A stretch of DNA of 43,812 bases from Macrostomum lignano (lineage: Eukaryota): NCBI GenBank assembly GCA_002269645.1, contig NIVC01000878.1:1-43812 (forward strand), given 5' to 3'. How positions within the stretch are numbered: the stretch's first letter is position 1; every line of letters starts with the position of its first letter. The notes beneath the pieces were generated by a model, which searched no databases, was not told the origin of the DNA, and worked only from the letters and a program-made list of their open reading frames with translations. Shown here one piece after another: positions 5,307 to 39,809 of this stretch. A program made the position numbers and the translations under genes.

Positions 5307-5338
<32 letters not shown>

Positions 5339-6136: not shown

Positions 6137-6529
6137 CGAGATGATTGAAACAGAAACTTTCTGACAACTGCAATATTTAGCTGAATTAGGCAAATCACTG
6201 CAGGTATCATCGCGTTTCTGCTAGCTCTATGAGTACTAATAGAATTGCATGCAGTTCATCACGATTCACTGGCATGATAAATGCGAATCTTCAGGCCAAC
6301 TGGTATGCGGAATTCTGCTTTATTCTTAGGTTCAACCATTTTCTGCTGAAATTTTCTAATCATTTTTTATGGTGTGCGATTCTTATTGCTGATTTCGAAT
6401 GGTTATATGACCTTAATTGTTCACCTGATTTACAACTCCTAACCTTTATCTTCATTGAGACGAGAAGAGATTTTAAGAGTGAAAACATAAGATATGGATG
6501 AACCGCCTCACTGACTGACAGACCGAAAG

Positions 6530-9500: not shown

Positions 9501-10295
9501 GGGACAGACAGACACTGGGACAGACAGACACTGGGACAGGCAGGGACAGGCAGACACTGGGACAGGCAGGGACAGGCAAGGCCAGACAGAGACTGGGACA
9601 GGCAGACACTGGGACTGGCAGACACTGGGACAGGCAGACACTGGGACAGGCAGACACTGGGACAGGCAGACACTGGGACAGACAGACACTGGGACAGACA
9701 GACACTGGGACAGGCAGGGACAGGCAAGGCCAGACAGAGACTGGGACAGGCAGACACTGGGACAGACAGACACTGGGACAGACAGACACTGGGACAGGCA
9801 GGGACAGGCAGACACTGGGACAGACAGACCCTGGGACAGGCAGAGACAGACAGGGCCAGGCAGAGACTGAGACAGGCAGACACTGGGACTGGCAGGCACT
9901 GGGACTGGCAGACACTGGGACTGGCAGACACTGGGACAGACAGACACTGGGACAGACAGACACTGGGACAGGCAGGGACAGGCAGACACTGGGACAGACA
10001 GACCCTGGGACAGGCAGAGACAGACAGGGCCGGGCAGAGACAGACAGGGCCGGGCAGAGACTGGGACAGGCAGACACTGGGACTGGCAGGCACTGGGACT
10101 GGCAGACACTGGGACTGGCAGACACTGCGACAGGCAGACACTGGGACAGGCAGACACTGGGACAGGCAGACACTGGGACAGGCAGACACTGGGACAGGAG
10201 GACACTAAGACAAGTGGACACTGGGACAGGCAGACACTGGGACAGGAGGACACTAAGACAAGTGGACACTGGGACAGACTCTGGGACAGGCAGAC
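6530..10295. repeat. 3.8-kb 16-bp satellite with higher-order variants
   Basis: Monomer CAGACACTGGGACAGG with recurring variant cassettes; it explains all the long SVCLSQC and DTGTGRHWD ORFs. Confidence 0.97.
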
Positions 10296-10669
10296 ACACA
10301 CTCTGACACACACTCTGACACACAGCCAGCTTTGCAAAGACAAGCGAGTGCCTGTTGTCTGTCACCATTGATTGCCTTATGAATCGCAGTGTTCGAGCTC
10401 GAATGTGCAATTCCAATCATCCATATTAACCATAGCGCAGCGAATTCTGAATTGCTGATTTAATTTTGCTTAATAATCTCTTATTCTACACGCTGTTTAC
10501 AAATCGATGTCCTGCATGCTTCCACTCAAGCCTGAGCATCCAGTCAGCTTAAAGTATACACAATAAAATATACACAATGCCTATCAGCTGTTGCAGGCGA
10601 ATATCAATATGTGAATTTTGTAGCTCTTTAGTCAATGAATGATGAAAACTTGTGAATGCATTCGCTTCG

Positions 10670-10960: not shown

Positions 10961-11322
10961 TGGCGTTGGAGCCTGACACGCCACGGTGGCTGCAGCAGCT
11001 CCTGCACTGCACTGCTGGTGGGCAGCAACACTCGGTCCAGAAGATGCAGAGCTGGAAGCCGGTAAAATGTCCTCGATTGATGTCGGTAAATAATCACAGA
11101 AAACACCTGCGCAACCGATAATAGATCTCGACTTGAGCTCATGCAGTTGTTGCTGCTGCAGGCTTGATGTGGCAGTGACAGAAAGCAATCGAGGCTCCCA
11201 ATGATCGCACAGCTCACTGAGTCTGAATACTCACAGAGAGTTAATACGGATTTCAATCAGACTCATGCCGCATCGACAGAGCTCTGTTTACCGATAGGCA
11301 AGCGGCTGCCTGCTGATCGAGA

Positions 11323-11336
11323 GTCTCCATGGCAAC
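11323..11336 (+). promoter_or_regulatory. RFX X-box-like motif upstream of WSC-PAN gene A
   Basis: GTCTCCATGGCAAC fits the palindromic X-box consensus and is conserved in paralog B (34682-34695). Confidence 0.5.
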
Positions 11337-11428
11337 GCATCAATAAGGCTGCTGTTATTTAGCCTCTCTCTCGCACAGAGATTCGGCAATCTTCTGCTTA
11401 ATGCCGCACTGACAAACCCAGCCTGGCC

Positions 11429-14400
11429 ATGCCTCTCTGCAGGATTCTCTGTACTGCTCCGATCCTGAGCTGCCTGATCTGCGCCGCTCTCTGCCGGGAG
11501 TTCCAGATCTCGGACCTCGGCTGCTTTGTTGACCACACAAATGGCGTGCAGAGAGACGTCGGTGGCATGAAGAACATTGGCCTCACACGGATCGGCAGCT
11601 CCGAGGTATCTCAGATATACGATTCTATCAACTGCGGCCAGATGACTCGCGAGCTGTGCAGCAGCGCCTGCGCTCTGGGCGGCTTCCAGTTCGCGGCTCT
11701 GCAATCGACATACTGGTGCTTCTGCGGCAACTCCTACGGGTCGCAGGGCGCTGCTCCCGACTCGGACTGCTTTCTTGCCTGCAGTGGAAACTCGGGCCAG
11801 AACTGCGGAGGTGATTGGCGAAACCGGGTGCTCCGGCTGAGCTACACCAACGGTGAGTTGCTGCTGCTGGTGGCCTCTTGTTCAGCATCTGTTAGTAGTA
11901 TGGGTTAGCAGAACCCTGCCGAACAGTGCGGAGATAGGAGACTCCGGAGACAGAAAGGCGATGGGCGGAGGTGAGGTGGTGCAAGGAGTTGGGGTGGGTG
12001 GGCAGAGTGGCGGGTTGGAGGTGAGGCCGGTGCAAGGAGGGAGGTGGGTCGGCTGAAAGTTAGCAGAACGCTGCCGAACAGTGCGGAGATAGGAGGACAG
12101 AAAGGCGATGGGCGGAGGTGAGGTGGTGCAAGGAGTTGGGGTGGGTGGCAGAGTGGCGGGTTGGAGGTGAGGCCGGCGCAAGGAGGGAGGTGGGTCGGCT
12201 GAAAGTTAGCAGAACGCTGCCGAACAGTGTGGAGATAGGAGGGCTGAAAAGGCGATGGGCGGGGTGGAGGTGAGGCCGGCGCAAGGAGGGAGGTGGGTCG
12301 GCTGAAAGTTAGCAGAACGCTGCCGAACAGTGCGGAGATAGGAGGGCTGAAAAGGCGATGGGCGGGTGGAGGTGAGGCCGGCGCAAGGAGGGAGGTGGGT
12401 CGGCTGAAAGTTAGCAGAACGTTAGTTAGCAGAACGCTGCCGAGCAGTGTGGAGATAGAAGAGCGAGCGTACGGGGTAGGGGGGGCAAGTCAGAGTGTGG
12501 GGTTGGTTGAACTGGAGAAATTGGAGAGGCCCAGCGCGCCTAGCGTGGGGTTGGTCGGTCAGGTGGAAGGCAAGCACTAAGCAGCACCTCCCTGTGGAAT
12601 ATTATTGATACAAAATGTCTGAGAAAGTTTGGGGAATTTTAGGGGGTGGGGCTGGGTATAGATAACAGAACCCGTTAGTGCGGGGAGGGTGGGGGCTTCC
12701 AGAAGGGCGAAAACAAAAACAACTCAGTCTGCGAAAACTTTTGGTATTGCAGCACTGAATTAAATTTTTAGTTCCCACAAACATGTTTACAACCGCAATG
12801 TTTTACAAAGAGCATATAAATGTACAGCCAGACTAAGATCGCCAATCGTAAAGGGGGGTTTGAGCTGGGGGGGTGGGGGCGATATGAGGGTTTGGGTTTG
12901 GGTGTGTGGGGTTCGCAATGGGGGATATTGTCAACGTATACTATAAAACTAATAAAAATAAATACAATTAAATATTATGAAAAAATATTTTCCCTAATCA
13001 ACCCCCGTCTGATGCTTCTAAAAAAAGATAAATAGCACGGCCCCCGCTCCTCCCTGCGTCTTAGAAGCCTCGAAGAATATTTGAAGCCCATTTAATTTTT
13101 TCCTTAAATAGAAATTTAACCGCTAAAATGAAAGCAAAAAGCAGCAGCTCTACTCAATTTGACGTTTGCCTGACCTGCAACAAAGTTGTTTTGGGTCAGC
13201 TATCGGACCGACATGATAGCTGCAGTGGAAGAAGCTCATGGTTGGTCTGCTGGCAATGCGGGATGATAAAGAAGAATGTGGCCAAGGCGAGAGGACTGAA
13301 AACCCACTGTGGTCATCTACAGCTGCCCAGTGGTGACAATGGCATGCGCAACCTGAGGCGAATGGTGATGCAAAAAGCTCGGCAACTGGCGGCAGATAGG
13401 GAGGCAACTCGGCAGGCTTTAAGCCAAGTTATCGAGGAGGTGAGAGAGGCCTGCAGCAACAGCGATGACGACTTTATTGTTCAGCCAAGTCGGCAGCAGG
13501 ATGTAGTTGAGCGGCCAACTGGCTCTCATCGTCGTCGTCCTGAGATCAAGGGCAAGACTCTCCGAATTGATGACCCGCATATCAGCGACATCTCGGAGGA
13601 GGAAGACGTGGACCTCGATAGTAAGGATGAGGAGGATTTCGGCAAAGAAGTCACCACCGGCACCTCCATCCAGCAGATCGTCTCCGCTCAGCTGCCCGCC
13701 GAGATGCAGCAGACCGGCTCCGCTCAGCTGCCCGCCGAGATGGAACTGCCTGGCTCCGCTCAGCTGCCCGCCGAGATGGAACTGCCTGGCTCCGCTCAGC
13801 TGCCCGCCGAGATGGAACTGCCTGGCTCCGCTCAGCTGCCCGCCGAGATGGAACTGCCTGGCTCCGCTCAGCTGCCCGCCGAGATGGAACTGCCTGGATC
13901 CGCTCAGCTGCCCGCCGAGATGGAACTGCCTGGCTCCGCTCAGCTGCCCGCCGAGATGCAGCAGACCGGCTCCGCTCAGCTGCCCGCCGAGATGGAACTG
14001 CCTGGATCCGCTCAGCTGCCCGCCGAGATGGAACTGCCTGGCTCCACCCAGCAGCAGCAGCAGCTCGTTGACCTTCTTGCTGGGTTAGAAGATGGTGAAC
14101 TATTAGAGGTGCAGCAGCAGCAGCAGCAGCAGCAGCCAAACAATGTAGCCGAGAATGTTGTGAGTAGCTGGCAAGGAGGACTGCAACTCATTTTGCCACC
14201 AATTTCTGGTGGTGGATATGCGATGTATTTTGAGGGAAATTCAATTAGATTTGTCCCTTTGTAATTGTTCAGCTGGCTTCCTGATTTCATCATTCCCCTA
14301 ATAACTTCCTCTGATTGCTTTTAACAGCTAATTGTATCATTTTATGCTTATGGTTCATCCAGCTATATAAAAGACAAAATCACTTTTGTTATATTGAATA

Positions 14401-17400
14401 AGAACTGTTGAATTAGAAAGCGAAATGAAAGACTGGAATCTTCTTTATCTTTGGATAAAAAAGTCCTCTTGTTGTTTTTTATTTTAAAAAACTTTAACTT
14501 ATGTTTAACTAGTAATCTTTCAGAATCGCTGTATAGCAACTTAAAAATTAAAAAGTGCATCAAATGCAAATTTGAAATATTCTACATATTCGAACACGAC
14601 AAAATCATTCTAAAATATTAAAAAAATTAATTTCAGCTTGAGCCCACTATCTCCTGTAACACTTCCCAAAGTGGGAATAGCTCGGTCGACTGGAGTGAAT
14701 CAGAGAATGAAAATTGGAGTGAGTCTGATGTTCAAACAGGCGACTGGAGTGAATCAAACGGCTCAGAGATTGACTGGTCTGAGACTGACTCCAATTCGAA
14801 TTTCTCAGATAGTGATTCTTCTGCATCAGAGTTTGAAGTCATCCAGTCAGCAAATCACTCCAGTGAATCCAATCAAGTTTCGGTATCTGGTGTAGCAATA
14901 ACTCCGGTCAACAGCAGAGTTGACAGCATCAACAGCTGCAGATCTGAACAGCCTGGTGAGTATTTGAAATTTTAACAAAAATAAATGGTGATATTAAAAC
15001 CAACTTTTTAGCACAAGCAAATATTAAGTTCAACAGCAATAGCTAAAAGTGAAATTTAACGAATTTTTAAACTCAACTAGCACACGTGCATAGTAGGTTT
15101 GAAATTATGAAAATAATTAAAAAATGATGTACATATCTTTTCGCAGATGCAGCGGATGTTCAAGTTATCAGAGCACACAATGGTGTTCTAGAAGTTTTGC
15201 GCTTCACTCCAAGACAAGAAGCACTCGAAGCACTCGCTTTTGTCAGAGCATGCAAAAATCTGGTGAGGCAAGCACTTTCTGATAGGCTGACAGACTCTAA
15301 CCTACTAGTTCGTGCGCAGTTGCGCCTCAACGTGCGGATGAAACGAATTAAAGGTGGAGAGGTAATTTCGGAAGAAGATAAATGGATTAGCAGCTGTCTA
15401 GAGGAACTGAATTCAATTGAAGACTTCGACGATTGGTGGGTTCGCCAAGTAGGAGCCTGTGAGCGAATAATTGATTGCCTAAACACTAATGGTAGTGGTT
15501 GGACCCTTGATGCTGCCAATGTCTTGGATGTCTGTGTTTCTCAAGGGGATCGAATTCGGTTTTACATTGGTCGAAGCAAAAAATTTGTCTTGCCAGAGGT
15601 GTTGAAGCGGAAGAAAGCCGTTATAAATGCCCCAAGTGATGGAGACAACTGCTTTATCTATGCCTGTCTTGCGGTTCTTCATCATGGTTCTGAGACTTTG
15701 CGAAAGTCGCCTCATTTAGTATCAACGTATGCACTTTGGCTGGGTGATATCAATATGGAAGGAATTTCGCTGCCGGTCACTTTAAGCGAATTGTCTGCCA
15801 TCGAGAATCAAAATCTAAACTTTTGCTTCACTGTGCTGACATGGGTGAGAGGTCACGTGGAAGTATTGAGGCAACCGAAAGTTAAAGTAGCGACTGGTAG
15901 GCGTGTGATTCCACTGCTGTATCTGCAGTGCGAAGAGGGAAAAAGCACCAATCACGCTGACAATGACGAAGAAGATGATGAAAGTATAACATTCGAAGGT
16001 CACTGGTGTAGCATTGTTAATTTGAATCGTCTTCTAAATAGCAAGGATGGTCTTCACCAACGGAAATGGTGCGAGCGGTGCCTGTCAGGCTTTCGTTCTC
16101 AGGAACGACTTGAGAAGCACAGACAGGATTGCTACCAAAGTGATGACTGTACTGTTCGAGAGGTGATGCCAAGTGCCGACAAGAATACTCTAGAATTTAC
16201 CAACTGGCAAAATACAATATCGCCTCCTTTTGTTGTCTACGCTGATTTCGAGGCTTTTAATTCCCCTTGCTCTAAGTATGAGGATAAAGAAGCTTCAGCA
16301 GGCGTGACTGAACTCGACAAATCAGCGTTCGAGAATTCTGGTGCCCCGTCCCGAGATGGTGGAACAGTGTACCTGACAGAGCACCTCCCTGCCGCTGCTG
16401 GATACATTCTTCTCCAACGAGAAGACACAATTGGTCCTCGATTGCGAGACAGAAACGCTAGTTTGCAAATTTTTAATGAGAGCGCGTCTGAAAGCTGCGT
16501 TGAAAAGTTTTTGCACTCGCTTGAAGAAGTTTCCAGAGAAGTCTATTCGTGGAACAAAACGCATAGCCATCAACCTAAAACTGTCACTGCTGAGCATTTA
16601 AAAGCCTTCGATGAGTCGACTACTTGCTTCCGCTGCGGATCGGTTTTCCCAGACCCATCTCAGAAGCACTGGGATCATGACCACTTGACCGGACAATTCA
16701 AGGGGGCTTCTTGTCCTGATTGTAACATGCGATCCCAACTTAAGCGACGCTTTTTGCCGATCCTTTTTCATAACCTAGCAGGCTATGATTGTCATTTGTT
16801 GTTTTCTACAGCTCTAAAGCGAATGACTCACTGGAAAATATCCGTGATTCCTCAGTCGATAGAGCGCTACTTGTCTCTAAGAGCCGAATTCGTTGTAGAC
16901 ATTGTTGAAATTCAGGGTCGCCAGAAGCCAGTTACATTTAGTCTGCAATTTTTAGACTCGCTTCAGTTTTTAAACTGTAGTCTTGATAACCTGATGCGAA
17001 ACATGCTAGCAAGTGAGTGTAACGTGACAATGCAAATGCGCAACGCGTTCCCAAATGTCTCTGAGGAAATTCTTCTTAGCAAGGGTATTTTCCCTTACGA
17101 CTATATTCAAAGCACTTCTGACTTGCAAACTACCGCGCTGCCAGATCAGAATAGTTTCTTCAACTCACTGACAAAGACGGAGTGTAGTGATGCTGACTAC
17201 AGTCGCGCTCAGCGAGCATGGTGCCAATTTAATTGCCAGAACCTTGGAGATTACATGAATCGCTACCTAGAACTAGACATTCGCCAATTGGCCGATGTCT
17301 TTGAGTCCTTCCGCAAGTTGAGTCTGCAAGACGATAGCTTGGATCCTCTCCATTACATAACTACACCAGGTCTATCGTTTGATTCTGCTCTAAAAAACAC

Positions 17401-20400
17401 CGGCGCAAAGTTAGAGCTGCTCACTGATGTGGATATGTATCGAATGTTTGAGCGAGGTATTCGTGGAGGCATAACTTTTACTAATGTGCATCAAGCTCAA
17501 GCATATGAGAAAGTAGATGATGATGAAAACTTCATTGCTCTTGATCAGCCTCCAAAAAGTGCTGCTTTAATTCCATTGGATGTCAACAATTTGTATGGTG
17601 TTGCGCTCTCAATGCCTTTGCCTACAAGTGGTTTCAAATGGGTTGAGAACCAGACAATTGAGGAGTGGACTGCTGAAACATTCTTATCCTTAACTGAAGA
17701 CTCACCCATCGCCTATCTAGTCGAGCTTGACTTACTTTATCCAGACGAACTTCATAGACAGACAGAAGACTTACCATTTGCACCTGAAAAAGGAAAAGTT
17801 GATTACAACGAATTTCCCGAATTCATGAAAGAACTCTGGAGCCAACTTCAGCTGAATGTAGACCGTCCGTATCATCCTTGCCAAAAGCTACTTCTAACAT
17901 GCTACGACAAAGAGCGCTACGTAGTACACTCGAACATACTCAAATTTTATCTTCAGCAAGGGATGAAGATCAAGAAGATTCATCGGGCGATTGCCTTCTC
18001 ACAAGAGCGTGTATTTGAGCCCTACATTAGAAAAAATAGTGAGTGCCGATCGGCCGCTACCAGTGATTTTGAGCGAAATTACTACAAGCTGAAAAATAAC
18101 TCTTTGTTCGGAAAGACAATGGAAAATGTCCGGAAAAGAAAAGATATTCGAATTTGCACAAGCGAAGAACAAGCCAGAATCTTCTGTTCCAAGCCTACGC
18201 TGAAAGACTTCCTAATTGTTAATGAAACAATATCAATATTCCAACTATCGAAGACCAATATCAAGCTTAACCGACCTGTTTATATCGGGCAGTGTGTCTT
18301 AGACAATTCTAAATTGGTCATGTATAACCTCTTTTACTGTGAGCTTAAGTCGCGATTCGAGCAGGTTCCTCATAGCAGATTGAAACTATGTGGAGGAGAC
18401 ACTGACTCGCTGTTTCTATGTTTAGAGAACCTAGATGTTCAAGGTTACGTGCTACCAGAAATGATTAAAGCCGGATTGCTAGACACAAGCAACTATCCTG
18501 ATGGTCACATTCTTAAGTCTAACAAACTGAAAGCAAGGCTTGGCTGTCTGAAGGACGAATCGTCTGGTGCAAAATTTAAGGAGTGGATTCTCCTTCGCCC
18601 AAAGCTTTATTCGATGCTTGCAGATGAAAGCTGCCCTCAGATAAACAAGAAGGTCGCTAAGGGTGTACAAAAATCTGTCGTCCGCAGTGTAATCACACAC
18701 CAGAGCTACCGAGAAGCATTCTATTCTCTCCAAGAGCTAACAGTTCAAGTTCGACGTATCGGCAGCAAGCGTCATCGTGTTTTTACAACTGAGCAGTCCA
18801 AGCGAGCATTGACAGTTTGGGAGGATAAGCGAGCATGGACAGACGCAAAGTCAAGTCTTCCATTTGGTCACTGTGCATTGCGAACCTCTAACTCCCAAGT
18901 ACGGACTCTTAAGCGGCCGACCTACGAAGTGCCTTTCATTGGCAGTCCCAAGCGAGCTAGACTAAATGATTGTTGAATTGATGTTCGTAATTTTAATAGC
19001 TGTTATGCTTTTTAATAAATTTTGCAATATTCTATCGATTGTATCAGTGAATTGATTGCATGTTGTAAAAAGATAGGTTAAACGTACAAATGAAGTTTCA
19101 TGTCTGCTTTTTTTAATAGAGAAACTTACGACCGTAGGTTCTCGTTCTCCATTCTTTTGTTACCCATCAGTTGAATTTGAAGTACTTATTTTTATTGACG
19201 ATTGTTTGTAGTTTTTCTTTAAATAAATTTGTTTGCTTGTGAAATAAAATTCTGTTTCTTTTTCAACTTCTTTTGCATGAGCTTAAATGTTTTTCAGTTT
19301 GACAATAATGTTTTCATATTGCTAGTTTTTCTGTTTGCTTAATTTTTGTTTTCATTGTATCAGTTTTTGCTCTTATCATTTTCATAACGTGAAATAAAAA
19401 ACCAAGCACAATATGCTCAATTCCAAGCAAAATTTACCGATGCACAGAATTTGACTTTTTAGTTTATTTTTACTGAGACTGGAAAACTAGTTTGCGCAAA
19501 CGCATACAGGCAGTTCGCAATTGTGCCATTGACCGAGCACCACTTAATACAAATGAGCCACTATGAAATAGAAGACATTTGCAACAACTGACATCAAAAA
19601 TTAACGCAGAAAAAGACTCAGGTTCATATTCAGCTTTTGGAATTTTCTTTGACAAGTCCAGCAAAGATAATGCAGAGCCTATTGAAAGTTGACCATGCGC
19701 AGTTATTGTCTTAACTCGAAAACAGATAACTTGAGGAGGCAGCAGTTGAGTCGAAACTCTGCGATGTAGCATAGCCACAAAGCGATGGGCAGCCCTTTTG
19801 GCGTCTGCGTGGGTCTTGGCACCACAGATGCTCAGTTGGCCAGTAGGGTAGAGTAGCAACGTTACTCTGGGAGTCCGCATCCTCTTGATAAGCACTCGGG
19901 GCCAGGCGGGCCGGTAGATCACATGAGCCATGCTGAGAGCCAGTTCCCGTAGAGGCAGCTGAGCGCCCTCGCCCCCATCCAGTTTCAAGTCTACTCCGCC
20001 GACTAGGTTTGTCACTTTTAGAGCTGAACACATTATGATCGGAAATTTCTTCACCAATGCTGCTGTGCCCGCTCTCGTGCCTGCTCTCGTGCCAAGGACA
20101 CTGGTCGCTTCTTAAGCTGATACAGAACTTGGGTCTGAGCCAACTGTAGTACATCAATGCATTCCGCACTGCACACCCGGTGTCTGACTCTTCAACTGAA
20201 GGTGTTCCCAAATCTTCTAGGTTGTGTACCTGTCTGCCAAGCAACTTAGTCAAAAACATCGACTTCTTCGCTCCATTCGTCCAGATAGGACCACTGGTAA
20301 TGTTCAGAGTGTCATCTGCTAGATCCATGTACGGACGGGTTCCATCGTTCCACTTAAGCTTGTGCAAATTCTTTGATAGCCTCTTGTAGTAGAACCGCAT

Positions 20401-23400
20401 CTCAGGTGAAACTCTCTCCCATGGATAAGGGGGAGCGTAGAAGCTTCCTGCTCTGACTTGAACAACAGCAAATTCTTTTATAATATATTCTTTGCTTTCT
20501 CTTTCGCAAGGAAATCCTTGGATGTCAATATAGTTCATATTGAGAAAGATCACTTTGATTTTTAAATATTGTCACTTTGTCTTCTTATATACTTTTCTCT
20601 GGCTCAACCTCAGCCAGGCTGTCTTGCTTCCTAGTCCCTTGACTATATCCTGCTGCTCTTTTTTCAATTCAGCCCCTGCCGAGTCACTCACTAGTGATAG
20701 TTGGTTTTTAACTGATTTCCCGATTGCCGAAACTGGAACATTCAGCTGCTTTCGCTGTAGTAACCAAAAAAATTCATTCCACCCAACTGGTTCACTCCCA
20801 CCTACTGAATCCCTCACTGCGTGTTGAACTAAGTCCAGTATGTTTGAGCAAGGAATCGATGTGCCTGAAATTTCCACCTCTCCATTTCCCAAAACTTGAA
20901 TCAATTCAGGCTTGTCTGACAGGCTTGCCCATAGACTGCGGGCCCTGGTCTTGAATTTCTGAGGCACTGATTTGCTGATCTTCTCCTCCCAGTTGTTCTG
21001 CGGCAGATCTGCTTTCATCGTCTTTGCTTTAGCTTTGCTCTTTGTAGCTTCTTCCTCTGCTTGCTTGCGCTTGGTCAAAACACTCTGCATTGCATTCTGA
21101 TACATGTTTCTTTTTACTTCTGCGGGATAATCCTCAGTATACAAGATATCATCACATTTTTGCTGGGCATGCTTTAAACTATATTCGCTTGCAGACTCAG
21201 TCGGCTTCAAATTCTGCATCAGCATGTCATACTCGGACTTGGAGATCAGAACCATTTCGGTGAATTTGTTCATCTTCTTTCTTTTTCTTGACGAGCTTTA
21301 ACAGAATAGGTAGAATTTTTATGAATGCAGCATTGCACAAGTCTTCTTTCCTTCTTTGAGTTGTAATTCTTCGAATTATGTGTCTCGACTTAACCAAAAC
21401 TGCCTTTTCAGTAAGCGAGAAAGACAAGTTGTTTTCCAATAGATTGTAGCAGGCCTCGGCAAGAAAATTTCTCACTTCTCTTGGGCCGCGCTTTATTAGT
21501 ACGCGCTTAAAGCTAACAGTATATTTTGATGACGCAAGAATTACAAAAATGTTTCTATGCAATTCAAGAGCTTCCATTTTTTGAGAAAAAAGCTTACAAA
21601 GCAACGGAGCTATTCTTAAGCATAGACAAGATGGGGTCGCTGGTTGGGTAAAATTCTAGCTCGCACTCGCAGCTCATCAGGAGTTGATGGATGAAAATCC
21701 AGAAACAGATAGGCTCCCCTTCCCTGTGCTGTTACATGCCTGAACACTGAAAGCAGAAAGCCGGGTTTTTCTGTAAAGCACTGCCTGCCCAGTGCTGCAA
21801 TCTGCAGCTGGTCTCTGGGGTTTTTCAAGATAGCTAAATACATTACATTCAAGCTCATTGTTCGCGACTCTTTTCCCTTGAAAAATATATTCTGAGTCAG
21901 CATCACCAAAAAGCACGGCAAGTGATGTGCGATTCCTGTGAAAAAATTTCGCATTGAAGCAGAATTCGAAGTTTCCTCTATTAAGTCATCGAAAACAACC
22001 AGGTCATTGGGCCTAAGTGCTGCCTCGATGTTGGTGGGAAATCCCTGGCGCAGCTGCACACCTAGGTTGCTCAATTCTGTATGGCCTGCCTGTGAGATCC
22101 CATAGTACCACAGAACTCTGCCAGGCTTCACATCAAACATGGCGTCTCTGTACTGGATCAGGTGTTTGACAAAGGTTGTTTTTCCTGCATTGGTGGGCCC
22201 GCAGACAATCATGCAGCTTCCCTGTCTGAGGCGGATATCGTAGCAAACTCGCTTTTCTCCCATGTCTAATGCATAAATATAGTTCTAGAACATCTTTTTC
22301 TTAAGTTGGCTTCAAACCTCTGTAAGATTCTATCATTCAAATGATTTTTTTCATTAGCATGCAAATGCTTCAAAATCCCCTCAAATGACCGATTGAACAG
22401 AAACTTTTGATAAGCAAAATAGATGCAAAACATTCCGCATTTATTAGAGTTAGCACATTGAAATCTGTTTATATTGCTTCGGAGCCAAAAGCCAGTTGTT
22501 TTAATCTCTCGAAACAAATTATAAACCACAGATAAAATTTCAGGTTCCCAGCCGAGGGAGTTGAACAGCTCAATGCAATTTCCTTGTCCAACATAGCACA
22601 CCACCCAATGACCAAATGAGCCATTGTGCTGTAGTAGAACAAAAACAAACTTATTTTCAAGGGAAATTGATCGATATTTTCTTTTTAGGCTCAAAGGCAA
22701 AACATTTTTATAGCGTAAATGTAAAGTAATGATGAGAAATTTTCGGCAAGACAAAAATTTTCTGGCGAGATTAAGTAGTTGAATTGCGTCCATGCCAATT
22801 AAGAGGAATAGTCCAGCAAAAGCTCCCGGTGCTTGGTGACCTCAATCAGCGAGTCATACAGGCACAGAGCGATCAGGGACACCGCTTCGTCCAGAGCCTG
22901 TCGGAAGCGAATCTCCAGCCGCAGGTTGCCCTCCTTCTGTCCGTACCACAGAGCCGCTCTCTCTGGTGTGAGATCGAATGCAAACACCGTGTTGTTGTTG
23001 GAGAAGAGCTGGTAGGGGATCCACGGGACCGAATTGCTTGCAGATTGACAGCTTTTCAGGTAGTGCAAGTATTCTCTTACAAAGGAATTGTTTTCAGGTG
23101 TGAAGGCGCCGTGGCACACGGTCTCTCCACCTTTCTTTAGAGCCAACCGGCTGAGGTTGAAGCTCTGGAACTGGAACGGACTCGCGTGATGATGACCGTT
23201 GAATGCTCGGTGGCTCACGAAGGCCAGCATGATGAACTTCGGCAATTTTCCATGAGTGAATCCTTCAATGTTTTTAGATTGAATGCCCTGGGGTAGGATG
23301 AAGTTCTGCATTTCAGTTCGCTCGATGGGATACAGTGCATTTTGGTTTGTCAGCCCCTGCTCGTGAGCCAGGCTGATGTGGGGCACCACTTTGACTCGGC

Positions 23401-26400
23401 GAAGATGAAGAATGCTGTGAGAGATTTCCATGCGATAAGCCGCGTTGTTTACATTCGGGGTTCTGATGGCAAAGGCCCCATCGCTGGGACCAGTTTGATG
23501 TGCAAGTGCAGATTGCTTAGCAGAAACACTGGGCACTGGAAAACATCGCTGAAGAGCGGCCCCGCATACTCCATCCATCGGGATTCCCTGTGGCTCTCCG
23601 TGTGCTCTTCAGCTGCAGAGTCCGGCTCCAGGAAGCCAGCAGGGTAAAGTTTTAGTTGCTGGGCATCAGATGAGCTCATTAGTGCTTTGAAGTACGCATG
23701 GTAGGGATAGAGCTGGTCTCCACCAGACACCACTCGCTGGTTAATGCTCACAATTACATCTGAGAAGGCTGTAGACAAAACAAAGTTTTCTGGGTGCACA
23801 TCACTGTCTCTGCGCTCGGTGATGATGCCATCTCCATCTCGAACATCCTCCCTCAGCAAACCCCCATCCAGTCTCACAAGGCGGCAGCGAATATAAAGAA
23901 AAGAATTAAGCAGATCTGTGTATTCATCGGCAGATTGGTGGCAGTCAAATTCAATGGGAGAATTTGCAGTAATGGAATTTACTGGGTGAATATCAACATA
24001 AGTAGCTTTTTCAATGCAGGTTTGTAGAACGGGCGTCTTTAATAAATCAAGTCTGGGATTGAATCCGTAAGCCATGTCTATGACAGAGTCGAGCACGCGT
24101 TTCACAGTTTTCTTGCTGACTTTTTGCTGTCGCTTTCCTCCGCCTGCTCTATTCTTCTTTGCTTTCGTCTTCCGATTCTTAAGCTTTTTCCTACTAGCCT
24201 TGCTCGGCTTTCTTCCATTGGACCTCTTATTGAGGCGATCGCCACCAGTTGCCTTTCGGGTGCGCTTCTTCTTCTTCAATCGTTTCGGACTTGCTTCAGC
24301 ATTTCTTTTGCGCCTGACATTGCTAAGCGTTGAGGATAATGATGTAGCCGCTGGAGGAGGCTGGTATGTCATGATCCCAGGGAAGCTCCCACAGCCATTG
24401 AGTGCAGGCTTTTCGTGTCCTGTCCTCACCCCCGAATATTGCTGTATTAGCTGCTGGTAGTTCATTGAATGCGTTTCTCCCGAATCTGAACTGTGAGCAG
24501 AACAGGGCTGTGAGTCTGTGCAATCAGTGGGCAACCATAGATGTCCCGCAGCTGAACTCGAATGCTGTGGAGAAGACTGATTCGTTGAATCGGGAAGAAT
24601 ATTGTTTTCTTAAATATTTTTGTTTGATAGTTGCCCCATTCAATGCCAGCTTTCATTCCAACTGTTCTCAACAAGGAGCCCCAGTTGCAATTAGTTGACT
24701 CAATGATACTGCAGTGCACATTGATTAAGCTGGTGCGCGGGCAGCCAATGCAATGCTCGGACACGCGGCTCCCTGGCTGGATTTTCACAGCCTGGTTTCC
24801 GAATCCCAGCCAATGCAGAATTTTGCTGGATGGGAGAAACAGCTCTGCTCTCGTAGTGTTGTTGTGCACCACAGTTCGTGAGTTGCGGATTTCGAACTTC
24901 ATACCAAATTCCCTGTTGCCACTACGCCCCATCAGGCCGGACTCATCAGCCTCCATCTCAGACTCCCTGTCACTCATCGCATCAAAGAACAGCGAATCAG
25001 AGTTGGCCAGCAGCTCATTCAGGCGCTCCACCAGCTCCTCCACTCTAGCAAAGCGTCCGGGTTGAAGAACCAGGGCCTCATGCTCTCTTCCATCTGAGAC
25101 AGTGAAGCAGTAAGGCTCGTCAACATTGAACCATGCAGCAGGCAGATGGATTTCAGCCAGACCTGCCTCATAGTCCACATTTCGATCCAAGTAAATAGGT
25201 GAAGACAGGTAAAAATTAAAGTCACTAGGAGTACCTTCAGCATGCTCACTGTTAATCAAAATAGTTCGCATTATAAAGATAAACTTCATGATGAGGGATG
25301 TGCCAAAGCTAAACCTTTCTTAAGTCTTTTTCATCCACCCAGCCAGTCGAATCGTAGCCGGCCCATTTCACCAGATAGCGAATTTTTCCCTTCCGCTTCT
25401 CCGTTTTCAGGATCTTCTCAATCACATACAGGCGCTGTGAGTCCGGGACAGCCTGCAGCTCGTGCTCATGGAAGAGTCCTCGAATCTCTTCCCCCCGCAT
25501 GTCTTTAATCTTGTACATGTAGGGATAATGTTTTGGGGCTCTGCTCACCACGGTGTACACTTCCTCACTCCAGCTCGCTTTGTATCCCTTTTTGAATAGC
25601 CGTGGAGCATTGGAAATTCTCACTGACTGGTTTTCAGCGAACTTAGGCTTCCTTAATTTTTCTAGAGTCTCGGCTGCTTTTCCATCGTACAGGTTCATCC
25701 ACACTTCAGATTCATTCTCTTTGCAGACACTAGTGGGTGCCATTTTGATGCTTCTGTGGTAGGTATTGTTGTAAGATTTTACCAGCTTAGGCAGCACATC
25801 AAGCCAGTGCAGTGTGCTCTTGTAGGTGAAGTAGCGCCACATTCTGCTTTTCAGAGTCCGATTCCATCGCTCAATGACAGCCGCCTTCTGCTCGCTGTTA
25901 GTTGGGAAAGCCAGAATCCCTCTGTCAATGCAGTATTGACGGAAAGTGGAGTTGATAAATTCCTTCCCCTGATCTGTGCGAACTGTGCGTGGCTGGCGCT
26001 TTGAACTTCTCAGTATGCTCTCGAATGCTGACTTCACTTCTGTAGCAGTTTTATTTTTCAGTGCCTTGGCCCAAGCACACTTTGACAGTACGTCAATACA
26101 TGTGAGAATATATTTGTAGCCTTTATTATACTTTGCGAATGGAATCATTTTTACCAAGTCAAGTTCCCACTGATCATCGATAGCCCGCACTATGATTGGG
26201 GCCCTTGGATATCGCCTTCTAGCTGGCTTGTGTAGGGTGTGCACTGGCTGCTCACTGAGCCACTGTTCTATGCACTTAGTGGATTTGCGATCTCCTCTTC
26301 TCCTAACTTCATTCAACAGTTTAGAAGCACTAGAAAAACTAGCCGGCTGTTGTGGGTCAAAGTAAATTTTTTCCATCCTCAAATGAAAAAGAACCAGATG

Positions 26401-29241
26401 TACACAGGTATGTTTTTCTTAAGAACAACGATTGGCGTTTTAAAAGACAGGTTTTATTCCAATATTAAACTCATACAGCGTACACTTATTATATTTTTTT
26501 AACTTAGGGACTGCGAACAGTTAGTGATCTTAAAAAGAAGATTGCAGGAAATAGTAACACTGAGTAGTGCAAATAAGTATAAATTGCATGCATTTAAGTA
26601 TAAACTTGGTTTGTTAACACCTGAATAAATAAGACTAAACGGTTACGACAATTGTCAAAACTTAACTTAGCTGAATAAAATTAGACAAAGGCAAACCAAA
26701 CTGAATTATCCTTTGAGTCTCATCAGTCTCATCCAACCTCCAGCTCAGTCTTCAAAACGCAGCTTAGACACCTTCATTGTCTCCTGCCTGCGCAGAGGAT
26801 ACGGCAGTTTCCGCTTTCGATTGTTCTCCACCTCAGCGGCATGAGCCCGGAATCGGTACCACACCGGATCCTGCTGTAGGTCCGTGTCCTCCGCCGGGAT
26901 GTTCCCAGTCGATGTGCCGGCTCTGGCCAAAGGTGTGGAAGTCACAGCCTCGATGTCGGTTGTCAGCTCCGATGGTGAGCCGACCTCCTCCTCGCCTTCA
27001 GCAGCCTCAGTCTTGACCGGCAGTATGAGGGTGGCGTCTTCGTCCTCATCTTCGGATGAGCTCAGCTCGTACTTCGCCCCCGCACCTTGGTAGGGCTCTG
27101 ATAGCTGCTGGTCTATCCAGTCCGAAGTCTGCCACAGCTTCTACCAGAGCTTCGGAGACAGTGGCACGGTGTTGCGCTTCATAAATTCATCACAGCAGTC
27201 CTCAGGCAGCCGCTTTAGCCAGATGAGGCCATCCTTGACTTGAACAAATTTGTCGAAGCCCAGCTTGATGACCTTGAGCTCGTTGTTCAGAGCCGACTTC
27301 ACCAGGGAGCGCTTTAACTCCTTTAGCTTCGTCCACTGCTGCACATTCAGGTTGAAGCCAGGAACACCAGGCTTGAGGCTTGCTGTGCTGCCATGTCGGT
27401 AAAACTTCCTGATCGCGATGTATTTCTGGCCTTCGAATTCTTGCACCTGCACTCTGTAACCTTCACTAATATCCATAGTTCACACAAAATCACTTCGAAA
27501 ACTTGTGAAATCGAATTCAAGAAAAAAATAGATTTACCGTTGAATTTAAAAAATCGGGGGCTTATATACCCTCAAAGCGGAGTGGGGTGGGTGTCAGAAT
27601 GAGCACCCACCCAATTTTTTGCTTATTCGGCATCAAGCAGCGGCTGCTCGTCAGCATCAGCCACACAAACCGTTGCAAAGTTTATTGCTCATTTATTAAC
27701 AATGCCAGTGCGCCTAGAGCTCACCTCTGTCCCTGCACAGTGAAAGTGCGGCAGAGTTGAACAGCTGTTTTAGAGCTCACCTCTCTGTCCCTGCACAGTG
27801 AAAGTGCGGCAGAGTTGAACAGCTGTTTTAGAGCTCACCTCTCTGTCCCTGCACAGTGAAAGTGCGGCAGAGTTGAACAACTGTTTTAGAGCTCACCTCT
27901 CTGTCCCTGCACAGTGAAAGTGCGGCAGAGTTGAACAACTGTTTTAGAGCTCACCTCTCTGTCCCTGCACAGTGAAAGTGCGGCAGAGTTGAACAACTGT
28001 TTTAGAGCTCACCTCTCTGTCAATTTGTTTACTCTGCTATTCCAAAACCTTCCGATTCTTTGCTTTGCTACCTGCCTCCCCCACCTGACCGACCAACCCC
28101 ACGCTAGGCGCGCTGGGCCTCTCCAATTTCTCCAGTTCAACCAACCCCACACTCTGACTTGCCCCCCCTACCCCGTACGCTCGCTCTTCTATCTCCACAC
28201 TGCTCGGCAGCGTTCTGCTAACTAACGTTCTGCTAACTTTCAGCCGACCCACCTCCCTCCTTGCGCCGGCCTCACCTCCACCCCGCCCATCGCCTTTTCA
28301 GCCCTCCTATCTCCGCACTGTTCGGCAGCGTTCTGCTAACTTTCAGCCGACCCACCTCCCTCCTTGCGCCGGCCTCACCTCCACCCCGCCCATCGCCTTT
28401 TCAGCCCTCCTATCTCCACACTGTTCGGCAGCGTTCTGCTAACTTTCAGCCGACCCACCTCCCTCCTTGCGCCGGCCTCACCTCCAACCCGCCACTCTGC
28501 CCACCCACCCCAACTCCTTGCACCACCTCACCTCCGCCCATCGCCTTTCTGTCCTCCTATCTCCGCACTGTTCGGCAGCGTTCTGCTAACTTTCAGCCGA
28601 CCCACCTCCCTCCTTGCACCGGCCTCACCTCCAACCCGCCACTCTGCCCACCCACCCCAACTCCTTGCACCACCTCACCTCCGCCCATCGCCTTTCTGTC
28701 CTCCTATCTCCGCACTGTTCGGCAGCGTTCTGCTAACTTTCAGCCGACCCACCTCCCTCCTTGCGCCGGCCTCACCTCCAACCCGCCACTCTGCCCACCC
28801 ACCCCAACTCCTTGCACCACCTCACCTCCGCCCATCGCCTTTCTGTCTCCGGAGTCTCCTATCTCCGCACTGTTCGGCAGGGTTCTGCTAACCCATACTA
28901 CTTCTGTTATTTACATGTTCAATTGGATTTTGTCTAGAGTCAAACTAAGTTTAGGCAGAATATCAAATTCCTTCAAATTAATCTTCCGAATCGAAGGTAA
29001 CAACTTCTTCGTCAGCGGCAACCGGACCTTCGTCGAACTCAACATCCCTGATGCGCCGAACTTTACGACTGTGAGCGCTTCAAGTCGGGTCCATTGTGCG
29101 TATCTGTGCTCCAGTAAAAGTTCCGGTTGCCAGGCGGTGATCTTCAGCCAGCAGCAGCGCCTGTGCCACCTGCTGGAGTTCGCTGCGGTCCCGGCCGCCT
29201 TCAGCAGCGCCAGCAGCGGCGACTTCTTTGTCCGTGGCTGA
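11429..29241 (+). CDS. Secreted WSC-domain + PAN/Apple-domain protein, copy A (two exons; intron contains the Maverick)
   Basis: Exon 1 is 11429-11852: signal-peptide-like N-terminus, WSC motif LGCFVD...MTRELCSSAC...FAALQ..YWCFCGN...C..ACSGN..QNCGG, donor G|GTGAGT. Exon 2 runs from about 28955 or 28997 to 29241: PAN-like CAYLCSSKSSGCQAVIFSQQQRLCHL. The exact acceptor is uncertain. Confidence 0.8.
11894..12566 (+). repeat. Left terminal inverted repeat (673 bp)
   Basis: Two ~150-bp and two ~103-bp units, each starting GTTAGCAGAAC(G/C)CTGCCGAACAGTG, then a unique inner segment ending GTCAGGTGG. Confidence 0.95.
13128..14264 (+). CDS. Maverick ORF1: Cys-rich N-terminus, acidic region, 10 x 12-aa repeat and poly-Q; possibly exon 1 of pPolB
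   Basis: 378-aa ATG ORF; CLTC...CWQC...HC pattern; 36-bp repeat at 13683-14042 (SAQLPAEMELPG); consensus donor GTGAGT at 14160 in phase 0. Confidence 0.75.
   Translation: MKAKSSSSTQFDVCLTCNKVVLGQLSDRHDSCSGRSSWLVCWQCGMIKKNVAKARGLKTHCGHLQLPSGDNGMRNLRRMVMQKARQLAADREATRQALSQVIEEVREACSNSDDDFIVQPSRQQDVVERPTGSHRRRPEIKGKTLRIDDPHISDISEEEDVDLDSKDEEDFGKEVTTGTSIQQIVSAQLPAEMQQTGSAQLPAEMELPGSAQLPAEMELPGSAQLPAEMELPGSAQLPAEMELPGSAQLPAEMELPGSAQLPAEMELPGSAQLPAEMQQTGSAQLPAEMELPGSAQLPAEMELPGSTQQQQQLVDLLAGLEDGELLEVQQQQQQQQPNNVAENVVSSWQGGLQLILPPISGGGYAMYFEGNSIRFVPL
14637..14955 (+). CDS. Predicted internal exon of the pPolB gene (Ser/acid-rich, WSES repeats)
   Basis: TTTCAG acceptor; stop-free frame LEPTISCNTSQ...DWSESENENWSESDVQTGDWSESNGSEIDWSET...RSEQP; donor G|GTGAGT at 14956; AT-rich intron to TTTCGCAG at 15146; joins in frame to the polymerase ORF. 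Confidence 0.7.
15147..18976 (+). CDS. Protein-primed family B DNA polymerase (pPolB), main exon
   Basis: Motifs YADFE (ExoI), C2H2-like CERC...KHRQDC, endonuclease-VII-like DHDHLTG...CPDCN, HNLAGYD (ExoII), KGIFPYDY, YLELD..QLADVFE (ExoIII), LDVNNLYG (motif A), KLKNNSLFGKT (motif B), GDTDSL (motif C), KLYS and KGV. Uninterrupted. Confidence 0.97.
19470..20033 (-). CDS. TATA-binding-protein (TBP)-fold protein encoded by the Maverick, 187 aa
   Basis: Two TBP repeats. Repeat 1: VTNLVGGVDL...LRELALSMAHVIYRP...IKRMRTPRVTLLLYPTGQLSICGAKTHADAKRAAHRF. Repeat 2: YEPESFSALIF...LLFHSGSFVLSGARS. These are colinear with canonical TBP NIV...LKTIAL...YNP...[25 protein letters not shown] and YEPELFPGLIY...IFVSGKVVLTGAK. 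Confidence 0.9.
   Translation of the reverse strand: MCSALKVTNLVGGVDLKLDGGEGAQLPLRELALSMAHVIYRPAWPRVLIKRMRTPRVTLLLYPTGQLSICGAKTHADAKRAAHRFVAMLHRRVSTQLLPPQVICFRVKTITAHGQLSIGSALSLLDLSKKIPKAEYEPESFSALIFDVSCCKCLLFHSGSFVLSGARSMAQLRTACMRLRKLVFQSQ
19711..20538 (-). CDS. Maverick-associated DEDD/DnaQ-like exonuclease-fold protein with a C-terminal run-on overlapping the TBP gene
   Basis: N-terminal ~135 aa YIDIQGF...IIKEFA...HKLKWNDG...NGAKK..FL...VHNLEDLG.P...CAVRN...W resembles a small protein recurrent in arthropod-type Mavericks. The remaining ~140 aa look like an out-of-frame shadow of TBP. Confidence 0.6.
   Translation of the reverse strand: MNYIDIQGFPCERESKEYIIKEFAVVQVRAGSFYAPPYPWERVSPEMRFYYKRLSKNLHKLKWNDGTRPYMDLADDTLNITSGPIWTNGAKKSMFLTKLLGRQVHNLEDLGTPSVEESDTGCAVRNALMYYSWLRPKFCISLRSDQCPWHESRHESGHSSIGEEISDHNVFSSKSDKPSRRSRLETGWGRGRSAASTGTGSQHGSCDLPARLAPSAYQEDADSQSNVATLPYWPTEHLWCQDPRRRQKGCPSLCGYATSQSFDSTAASSSYLFSS
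20572..21273 (-). CDS. Conserved Maverick hypothetical protein
   Basis: 233-aa ORF; MVLIS..EY start and the IPCSNILDLV...EPVGW..F..LL...NVPVSAIG pattern recall a recurrent Maverick gene found next to the ATPase module. Confidence 0.7.
   Translation of the reverse strand: MNKFTEMVLISKSEYDMLMQNLKPTESASEYSLKHAQQKCDDILYTEDYPAEVKRNMYQNAMQSVLTKRKQAEEEATKSKAKAKTMKADLPQNNWEEKISKSVPQKFKTRARSLWASLSDKPELIQVLGNGEVEISGTSIPCSNILDLVQHAVRDSVGGSEPVGWNEFFWLLQRKQLNVPVSAIGKSVKNQLSLVSDSAGAELKKEQQDIVKGLGSKTAWLRLSQRKVYKKTK
21227..21577 (-). CDS. Small basic Maverick protein (putative virion core protein)
   Basis: Basic ~116-aa ORF with EACYNLLENNL...L...RHIIRRI...FIKILP pattern, in the position usual for a small conserved gene downstream of the ATPase. 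Confidence 0.6.
   Translation of the reverse strand: MEALELHRNIFVILASSKYTVSFKRVLIKRGPREVRNFLAEACYNLLENNLSFSLTEKAVLVKSRHIIRRITTQRRKEDLCNAAFIKILPILLKLVKKKKEDEQIHRNGSDLQVRV
21616..22263 (-). CDS. A32/FtsK-like genome-packaging ATPase
   Basis: Walker A GPTNAGKT, Walker B VVFDDL, then HH...LTQNIF...R..SLN..YL...KNPRD..QI..LGRQ. Confidence 0.95.
   Translation of the reverse strand: MGEKRVCYDIRLRQGSCMIVCGPTNAGKTTFVKHLIQYRDAMFDVKPGRVLWYYGISQAGHTELSNLGVQLRQGFPTNIEAALRPNDLVVFDDLIEETSNSASMRNFFTGIAHHLPCFLVMLTQNIFFKGKESRTMSLNVMYLAILKNPRDQLQIAALGRQCFTEKPGFLLSVFRHVTAQGRGAYLFLDFHPSTPDELRVRARILPNQRPHLVYA
22266..22793 (-). CDS. Adenain-like cysteine maturation protease
   Basis: GHWVV (His), ELFNSLG, and FQC.NSNKCGMFC (oxyanion Gln and catalytic Cys). 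Confidence 0.88.
   Translation of the reverse strand: MDAIQLLNLARKFLSCRKFLIITLHLRYKNVLPLSLKRKYRSISLENKFVFVLLQHNGSFGHWVVCYVGQGNCIELFNSLGWEPEILSVVYNLFREIKTTGFWLRSNINRFQCANSNKCGMFCIYFAYQKFLFNRSFEGILKHLHANEKNHLNDRILQRFEANLRKRCSRTIFMH
22799..24075 (-). CDS. Major capsid protein (double jelly-roll), split by a 1-nt frameshift near 23487
   Basis: LDLLKTPVLQTCIE..TYVDIHP...SPIEF...YTDLLNSFLY start; restoring one C in GTCCCAGC joins it to SILHLRRVKV...YPIER...GKLPKFIMLAFV...FNG...PFQF...FAFDLTP...NLRLEIRF, giving 425 aa. Confidence 0.9.
24076..24465 (-). CDS. Lys/Arg-rich core-like protein reading in frame into the MCP
   Basis: ATG overlaps the mCP stop (ATGA); 130 codons dominated by K/R; LNGCG matches an adenain cleavage consensus; no stop before the MCP ATG. 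Confidence 0.75.
24462..25289 (-). CDS. Minor capsid protein (penton, single jelly-roll)
   Basis: NSEH...TPSDF...L..PIYL...YEAGLAEIHLPAAWFNV N-terminus and INVHCSII...LLRTV...FPI...I.VQLRD..G C-terminus, typical of Maverick pentons. Confidence 0.85.
   Translation of the reverse strand: MKFIFIMRTILINSEHAEGTPSDFNFYLSSPIYLDRNVDYEAGLAEIHLPAAWFNVDEPYCFTVSDGREHEALVLQPGRFARVEELVERLNELLANSDSLFFDAMSDRESEMEADESGLMGRSGNREFGMKFEIRNSRTVVHNNTTRAELFLPSSKILHWLGFGNQAVKIQPGSRVSEHCIGCPRTSLINVHCSIIESTNCNWGSLLRTVGMKAGIEWGNYQTKIFKKTIFFPIQRISLLHSIRVQLRDIYGCPLIAQTHSPVLLTVQIREKRIQ
25309..26376 (-). CDS. Retroviral-type (rve) DDE integrase with C-terminal chromodomain
   Basis: WELDLV (D), RTDQGKEF (D), AVIERWNRTLK (E); chromodomain YVIEKILK...RYLVKWAGY...WV. 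Intact. Confidence 0.96.
   Translation of the reverse strand: MEKIYFDPQQPASFSSASKLLNEVRRRGDRKSTKCIEQWLSEQPVHTLHKPARRRYPRAPIIVRAIDDQWELDLVKMIPFAKYNKGYKYILTCIDVLSKCAWAKALKNKTATEVKSAFESILRSSKRQPRTVRTDQGKEFINSTFRQYCIDRGILAFPTNSEQKAAVIERWNRTLKSRMWRYFTYKSTLHWLDVLPKLVKSYNNTYHRSIKMAPTSVCKENESEVWMNLYDGKAAETLEKLRKPKFAENQSVRISNAPRLFKKGYKASWSEEVYTVVSRAPKHYPYMYKIKDMRGEEIRGLFHEHELQAVPDSQRLYVIEKILKTEKRKGKIRYLVKWAGYDSTGWVDEKDLRKV
26745..27476 (-). CDS. PC4/Sub1-like ssDNA-binding coactivator with acidic tail, interrupted by an in-frame TAG at 27141-27143
   Basis: RVQVQEFEGQKYIAIRKFY...KPGVPGFNLNVQQWTKLKE parallels PC4 VSVRDFKGKVLIDIREYW...KPGRKGISLNPEQWSQLKE. The frame stays open after the TAG until the TGA at 26745. 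Confidence 0.82.
27561..27568 (-). promoter_or_regulatory. TATA box upstream of the PC4-like gene
   Basis: TATATAAG on the minus strand, ~85 nt upstream of ATG 27476, in GC-flanked context. Confidence 0.5.
27716..28021. repeat. 58-bp subterminal tandem array, 5.3 copies
   Basis: AGAGCTCACCTCTCTGTCCCTGCACAGTGAAAGTGCGGCAGAGTTGAACA(A/G)CTGTTTT at 27716, 27772, 27830, 27888, 27946 and a partial at 28004. Confidence 0.95.
28081..28902 (-). repeat. Right terminal inverted repeat (822 bp)
   Basis: Reverse complement of the left TIR with three long and two short units. Confidence 0.95.

Positions 29242-39777: not shown

Positions 39778-39809
<32 letters not shown>

Follow-up and report, generated by a model that had tools for sequence, protein, structure and literature searches.

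A Maverick/Polinton in the genome of Macrostomum lignano carries a gene of the TATA-binding protein (TBP) family. Its product comprises 187 residues with two TBP repeats and is a TBP-family member rather than a canonical TBP, and the gene is a long-resident component of two Maverick lineages, not a one-off acquisition. The window that we analyzed covers 43,812 nt of contig NIVC01000878.1 and includes the complete element (Table 1); the names of the nearest proteins likewise point to M. lignano as host.

The element begins and ends with AGTAGT...ACTACT in the window sequence, and its TIRs are about 670 nt long with 98% identity over 665 nt. It combines TIRs, a 6-bp TSD, a pPolB, a retroviral-type integrase and, judged from a model of the homologous frame, a double-jelly-roll major capsid protein (MCP), as in Mavericks/Polintons; AGT termini and a 6-bp TSD are traits that we take to define this group. 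The modeled MCP frame comes from a related locus (L031), is predicted to form a double jelly roll, and matches the MCPs of iridovirus, PBCV-1, Sputnik and mavirus with E about 1e-14. From its position, we presume that the gene at 24462..25289 encodes a minor capsid protein. The structural strand ends with the TBP ORF, which is convergent with pPolB. A 3,188-nt contig from an independent run spans pPolB to the TBP repeat junction with 5 differences; the pPolB-TBP arrangement is thus not an assembly chimera. The TFIIB family PF00382 gave no match in 13 element ORFs, and none of its 15 matches in the genome (23 of 23 candidates scored) lies on the window contig.

Table 1. Features of the Maverick and of its TBP region, in window coordinates.
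Feature	Position	Strand	Remarks
Whole Maverick/Polinton	11894..28902	.	17,009 bp; TCTGTT on both sides (6-bp TSD)
Left TIR	11894..12566	+	
Right TIR	28081..28902	-	Extra internal repeat units inside
pPolB, protein-primed-type DNA polymerase B	15338..18976	+	PF03175, E 3.6e-18, above cut-off
Element TBP	19470..20033	-	187 aa, two repeats, no N-terminal extension; PF00352 and model
TBP repeat junction	19686..19712	-	About codons 108-116; switch zone from near-identical to divergent in related elements
Upstream DEDD-like ORF	19711..20538	-	275 aa; conserved N-terminal domain of ~150 aa, tail overlapping the TBP N-repeat
CTTAAGAA box	20109..20116	-	83 nt before TBP ATG
TATATAAGAA	20582..20591	-	Canonical TATA overlapping element box, about 51 nt before DEDD-like ATG
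Two unnamed conserved ORFs	20572..21577	-	233 aa and 116 aa
CTTAAGAA box	21613..21620	-	Before 116-aa ORF
Packaging-type ATPase	21616..22263	-	Weak P-loop/Pox_A32 matches below cut-off; Walker motifs visible
CTTAAGAA box	22298..22305	-	Before ATPase
Adenain-type protease	22266..22793	-	PF00770, E 0.0026, below cut-off
MCP	22799..24075	-	Two frames in window copy (split)
CTTAAGAA box	24176..24183	-	108 nt before MCP start (24075)
Putative minor capsid protein	24462..25289	-	
TTTAAGAA box	24607..24614	-	149 nt before basic (core-protein-like) ORF
CTTAAGAA box	25317..25324	-	Before putative minor capsid gene
Retroviral-type integrase with chromodomain	25309..26376	-	PF00665 and PF00385, above Pfam cut-offs
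CTTAAGAA box	26416..26423	-	Before integrase
PC4 homologue	27141..27476	-	PF02229, E 6.6e-10, above cut-off
Canonical TATATAAG	27561..27568	-	Before PC4; candidate early promoter

The TIRs are composed of repeated units, in unequal number at left and right, and about five tandem copies of a ~57-nt unit lie just inside the right TIR (window 27720-28020). A 378-aa ORF at 13128-14264 (+), Cys/His-rich at its N-terminus and containing a tandem repeat of 27 nt, could not be matched convincingly to any family. The element is inserted in a host gene with exons at 11280-11902 and 28915-29560, which we take to be WSC-like and PAN/Apple-like, and an inverted paralogue of this gene (33417-34738) is free of the element and has a single TCTGTT at the site. 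Two copies of one host gene, presumably argininosuccinate-lyase-like, flank the region at 3095-5726 and 38462-40155, the second adjoining a retroelement frame (40170-42623) that we assume to be of Pao/BEL type. A satellite of about 4 kb with 10- and 16-nt units (6430-10370) gives rise to a spurious 1264-aa ORF.

A preliminary description of this DNA, made from the letters and ORF translations, had read the 187-aa ORF as a two-repeat TBP inside the TIRs and as the last gene of the structural strand, a reading borne out by the TIRs and TSD, by Pfam and by modeling. PF00352 matches the ORF in two stretches with E 2.4e-26 (91.8 bits, cut-off 22.9), and all 35 sequence matches in the PDB were TBPs or TBP fusions. 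The AlphaFold2 model (pLDDT 91.4, from a 12-row alignment) has the predicted saddle fold of the TBP family. All top Foldseek matches of the model were TBPs, with TM 0.75-0.84, and its superposition on TBP gave Z 20.4 and an rmsd of 1.9 Å over 175 residues. The host TBP core is one unbroken frame, and the intronless ORF is therefore uninformative on retro-capture. Three runs presumed to be RNA showed no informative joints; two of them tracked the depth profile of a fourth run, and one had no TBP cover. Three database gene models join halves of the element TBP to host or neighboring exons and are probably annotation artefacts.

Residues of the element TBP are given in what we take to be yeast TBP numbering. 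This numbering was anchored on the host TBP and partly matched to Table 1 in the accessible part of PMC12529657. In the window copy, N69 is kept, W44/P45 stand at R98/F99, Y62 at F116 and T109 at N159, E137/E139 at E186/E188, and F141 and F156 at F190/F207. The alignment to host TBP thus confirmed the first reading that the C-terminal repeat keeps F190, F207 and E186/E188 and that the N-terminal repeat keeps N69 and replaces its Phe pair. The change of N159 to Thr, also reported there, holds, but N159 belongs to the C-terminal repeat. Beyond that reading, the DNA face has lost P191 and has Lys at V203. Among the four intercalating Phe of canonical TBP, F190 and F207 are kept, with Tyr at 116 and Pro or Trp, depending on register, at 99; from the dyad Asn pair N69/N159 and P191, only N69 is kept. 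N69, P99, R100, Y116, K158, T159, E186, E188, F190 and F207 are identical in all 16 element-type rows, and P191 is absent from these 16 rows as well as from 21/21 genomic copies.

Counts for the following surfaces refer to these 21 genomic copies. All of them have Lys or Arg at the V203 position by strand register, and all keep the EPE motif that holds the TFIIB stirrup acids, so that this trait of canonical TBP is present at the sequence level. Stirrup acids are described as critical for TFIIB in the accessible part of PMC12529657. The helix 2 surface, said to be retained as basic in the preliminary description, is so in the 14 copies of lineage A, with a net charge of +5/+6, but not in lineage B (-2 in 7/7). 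Across lineages, what is conserved is a remodeled DNA face together with the TFIIB stirrup, and not the TFIIA-side patch.

A search of the host's own genome gave at least 152 matches to the element TBP (150 of 231 candidates scored), a figure that does not equal copy number; single host genes occur three times in the assembly. The matches fall into identity groups of 100, about 81, 75, 72 and 69%, plus a distant lineage B (36-37%). In all 36 distinct places that were read (40 loci, 4 of them duplicated), the gene preceding TBP is the same DEDD-like ORF, with an insertion between the two in one case. Over the 10 kb read per locus, lineage B also has integrase, MCP, protease, ATPase and PC4, but no pPolB. 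PC4 of lineage B is located on the opposite strand, directly after TBP. TBPs of lineages A and B are 33-39% identical, compared with 41-47% for the ATPase, 35-49% for MCP and 27% for the protease; the similar divergence of these genes indicates that TBP is an old resident gene. Nei-Gojobori analysis of nine lineage-A copies gave ω of 0.05-0.37 for the N-half in 36/36 pairs and of 0.08-0.28 for the C-half in 14/36 pairs, the other 22 being saturated. In the C-repeat outside the overlap with the upstream ORF, pN is 0.14-0.38 at pS 0.59-0.87. The gene is thus multi-copy and under purifying selection, and it is only 24-32% identical to host TBP, unlike the unique, neutral and near-host copy that the preliminary description had named as refuting its reading; the other outcome named there, no significant TBP-fold match, is contradicted by Pfam and the model.

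The 15 element-type rows formed one clade in a quick tree of 121 rows (SH-aLRT 96). AU tests on a quick LG+G4 tree of 34 rows, limited by long branches, rejected joining the element TBPs to host TBP (p 2e-5) and to host TRF2 (p 0.026) but did not reject grouping with short metagenomic TBPs (p 0.49). A recent capture from the host is therefore not supported. Relatives outside the assembly comprise four proteins near lineage A and two near lineage B. Nine further TBPs are short (168-193 aa) and divergent, and possibly belong to other mobile elements; like the element TBP, several of them have Pro at 117 or FH at 207-208. Searches of viral contigs with the TBP alignment (23 stretches) and with the ATPase gave no match, alignment A2 gave one archaeal-type locus there, and a metagenome scan gave 13 weak loci; of the three that were read, one is an archaeal-type locus, one a short contig and one a canonical eukaryotic TBP.

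Comparison of five lineage-A elements revealed N-repeats that are 96-99% and DEDD-like domains that are 95-99% identical, next to C-repeats at 50-77% and pPolBs at 53-65%. In all nine pairs shown, identity switches sharply at one place, directly behind the KTITA strand with which repeat 2 begins. Nine C-repeat variants are found on three N-repeat types among the ten loci compared, and the DNA-facing residues of the C-repeat are fixed despite its divergence. We infer from these patterns that replication backbones have repeatedly exchanged the virion cassette and that the last conserved stretch is where crossover took place. The L021-L032 comparison shows more identity switches near the ends of integrase, protease and ATPase, as further recombination points.

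The tail of the DEDD-like ORF is read in another frame than TBP. The overlap exists in both lineages and, in lineage A, the tail ends at the repeat junction. The upstream ORF is open across the N-repeat for at least 323 nt in 33/36 places. In 12 copies, stops occupy 0 of 12-17 synonymous opportunities within the overlap versus 3-9 of 11-16 after it, a deficit with P about 3e-5 to 7e-4 in lineage A and 5e-3 in lineage B, as computed post hoc on related copies. The tail has ω above 1 in the overlap; the open frame rather than its sequence thus seems to be kept, and the constraint lies on the TBP frame. Pfam, PHROGs and the PDB gave no match to the DEDD-like ORF, and its DEDD/Maelstrom-like identity (Atlas 0.88 to Maelstrom) is a lead only. 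Compared with its sister copy, this ORF carries an in-frame deletion within the domain in the window element.

An unbiased k-mer count found CTTAAGAA in 6 of 11 upstream regions of 120 nt and 7 times on the whole 17-kb strand. The more general form YWTAAGAA is located 35-149 nt upstream, mostly 35-110 nt before the ATG, of 8 of the 11 structural-strand genes, namely integrase, minor capsid, basic ORF, MCP, ATPase, 116-aa ORF, DEDD-like ORF and TBP itself, the last being a trait of lineage A. The exact box was not found before the protease, the 233-aa ORF and PC4 of the window copy, and one site lies antisense inside pPolB. Sense counts in three diverged arms were 8, 6 and 6, compared with Markov means of 0.5-0.7, and were reached in 0 of 1000 resamples. 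Over nine related loci, there are 61 sites in 58 kb of structural arms versus 1 in 26 kb of pPolB sense strand. Canonical TATA-like sites are present at PC4 and in the pPolB arm. In lineage B, boxes stand at matching positions, mostly TATAAGAA/CATAAGAA, and a canonical TATAAAAG before TBP.

A third Maverick group, group C, is represented by three elements with another gene order and an ATPase 33-40% identical to those above. No TBP was found in the 8 kb read per element, and the listed group C contigs are absent among the TBP matches listed (150 of 202 and 150 of 164 candidates scored). The group C box is TATAAGC and stands before several genes, with 6, 4 and 4 sense sites and 0 antisense sites. 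By eye, one of these elements has an ORF that we take to be dUTPase-like, and one group C ORF ends in a presumed phospholipase-A2-like motif. On this provisional absence of TBP from group C, the present TBP is not needed for a TAAG core, and the box alone is no proof of a late-gene switch. The TAAG box is common to the Mavericks of this host and may be readable by host TBP: wild-type TBP has been crystallized on G(-26) and T(-30) variants of TATA (entries 1qn5 and 1qna), which suggests that G at position 6 and T at position 2 may both be acceptable to the host protein.

TAAG alone is common to groups A, B and C, with flanking GAA in the TBP-bearing groups versus GC in group C. Gene-proximal TAAG sites that start with TA make up 1/18 in lineage A versus 11/18 in group C (Fisher p 0.001, sites non-independent); lineage B has 2/3, an undercount with many ORFs broken. 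The 5' half of the box would be read by the C-terminal repeat of TBP. By its sequence, the lineage A box is set apart by this 5' end, the position that P191 would guard. The accessible part of PMC12529657 states that the P191-equivalent proline favors T at the first TATA position.

Building on the fold, the selection, the residue pattern and the box, we consider it rather probable that the protein is an element-specific late-promoter TBP that would recruit host TFIIB and Pol II to the box, as an early-to-late switch with positive feedback. Host TBP would first transcribe pPolB and PC4 from canonical TATA boxes, and would also give a first pulse of the DEDD-like/TBP pair, in the window copy from the composite TATA that precedes the DEDD-like ORF and in lineage B from the TATAAAAG that precedes TBP. 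The element TBP would then bind boxes of the CTTAAGAA type, recruit host TFIIB and Pol II, and switch on the genes for capsid, ATPase and integrase; in lineage A, it would activate its own gene as well. With P191 lost, C would be permitted at position 1 of the box, and the N-terminal half with P99/R100/Y116 would read the 3' GAA. Several points speak against this late-promoter reading: the group C box without a detected TBP, the crystals of wild-type TBP on TATA variants, and the window genes that lack an exact box. Further, lineage B has mostly TATAAGAA/CATAAGAA boxes even though P191 is missing from its TBP too, and the changes F116 to Tyr and F99 to Pro/Trp could mean weak or no bending. 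The late-gene switch proposed in the preliminary description gains genuine, if indirect, support from the conserved TATA-variant box before structural genes, but the TAAG box also occurs where no TBP was found. A wider formulation, which we offer tentatively and with slightly less than even confidence, is a sigma-factor-like program on host Pol II, in which a minimal, retuned TBP would serve a private CTTAAGAA box, amplify itself and be encoded by a two-module chimera. The N-repeat would travel with the virion cassette, and the C-repeat, in at least nine variants, would be linked to diverged polymerase backbones.

We think it unlikely that host TBP/TFIID reads the box as a weak TATA in all Mavericks and that the element TBP is a decoy or repressor, which would titrate TFIIB, NC2 or Mot1 or block host or early promoters. 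The group C TATAAG box without a detected TBP, the crystal entries with wild-type TBP on TATAAG and TTTA variants, and the invariance of the stirrup acids in a protein without the N-terminal Phe pair would all fit this reading. A decoy need not, however, fix K158, T159, R100, Y116 and K203 across lineages about 35% identical, and lineage A boxes depart from TATA at positions 1-2. The TFIIA/helix-2 surface also varies between lineages, and the TFIIA decoy suggested earlier is weakened by the missing basic patch of lineage B. It seems about as unlikely that TAAG, possibly as an initiator, is read by another factor common to the three groups, either a host factor or the product of an unnamed element ORF. 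TBP would then have its role elsewhere, such as at the TIRs, in the choice of integration sites or together with PC4. Such a reader would account for TAAG as the sole part shared by all groups, the 116-aa and 233-aa ORFs appear by eye to have counterparts in group C, and TAAG acts as the initiator in baculovirus late promoters. The box is nevertheless 8 bp long, A/T-rich, oriented and positioned before the ATG as for a TATA-type element, and its flanks differ between TBP-bearing groups and group C.

Retention of the TBP frame mainly through its overlap with the DEDD-like ORF, or by hitch-hiking with the structural cassette, would agree with the open upstream frame over the N-repeat, but it is largely refuted by the constraint on the non-overlapped C-repeat and by ω above 1 in the other frame, and we hold it to be very improbable. 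Passive recent capture of a host TBP mRNA has in its favor only the lack of introns, a trait of the host core gene too; the low identity to host TBP, both AU rejections, the number of genomic matches and purifying selection refute it, and it is scarcely credible.

A description of the timing of animal Maverick genes was not found in the literature covered, and the present work offers a candidate factor together with a candidate target box. A direct test is possible, as the host is a laboratory animal and group C provides a comparison with a different box and no detected TBP. If the late-promoter reading is true, this would be the first defined early-to-late switch for animal Polintons and a separate route to a viral late-gene TBP, with the TFIIB contact kept unlike in the herpesviral mimic. 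The element TBP is also a candidate natural altered-specificity TBP, and its C-repeat variants would then form a natural library of TBP half-site swaps.

The preliminary description did not count TBP among standard Maverick genes. This needs qualifying by one printed precedent, a TBP label in the Fig. 5 legend of Starrett et al. 2021 (PMC8502044; preprint 10.1101/697771), for a MELD virus or related element with an adintovirus-like PolB. As here, a TBP-like gene lies in a Polinton-like element; it is known from the legend and belongs to a section on non-animal datasets. A term search of the main text available for PMC8502044 gave no other mention of TBP or TATA, and its supplement has no TBP, TATA or Macrostomum. 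Beyond this legend, TBP or promoter boxes in animal Mavericks were not found in the literature covered, which mostly excludes subscription journals. Otherwise the element resembles animal Mavericks/Polintons (adintoviruses) in its TIRs, 6-bp TSD, pPolB, integrase and double-jelly-roll MCP and, by matches below the curated cut-offs, in a putative ATPase and protease. A stably carried TBP gene and a matching box upstream set it apart from them.

Cellular TBP and TRF2 (TLF) share with the element TBP the two-repeat saddle, N69, F190, F207 and E186/E188. The element protein differs in its low identity (24-32%), its fixed P99/R100/Y116/K158/T159/K203, the loss of P191 and the rejected joint clade, and host TRF2 is altered otherwise, with Arg at F116 and His at F190. 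Nucleocytoviruses also encode a viral TBP fold (BFVD matches; ASFV B263R, in the accessible part of PMC5825884). These are weaker structural matches than cellular TBP, with best TM 0.68-0.76 and 5-17% identity. Most TBP-bearing nucleocytoviruses encode their own RNA polymerase, unlike the Maverick. Among beta- and gamma-herpesviruses, EBV BcRF1 and CMV UL87 are further TBP mimics besides KSHV ORF24. For ORF24, the proposed role is to bring host Pol II to late promoters that contain TATTWAA (PMC12529657, accessible part). The herpesviral mimics and the element thus share a virus-encoded TBP-like protein, a variant TATA box and, as proposed, host Pol II. ORF24 is a large multi-domain protein that has all four Phe and an equivalent of P191 but no TFIIB acids, and it acts in a six-protein complex, whereas the Maverick TBP is a bare 187-aa core that keeps EPE, has lost P191 and the N-terminal Phe pair, and is associated with YWTAAGAA rather than a TATT box. 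By this analogy, our best reading is that the element TBP may work like a herpesviral TBP mimic without being one.
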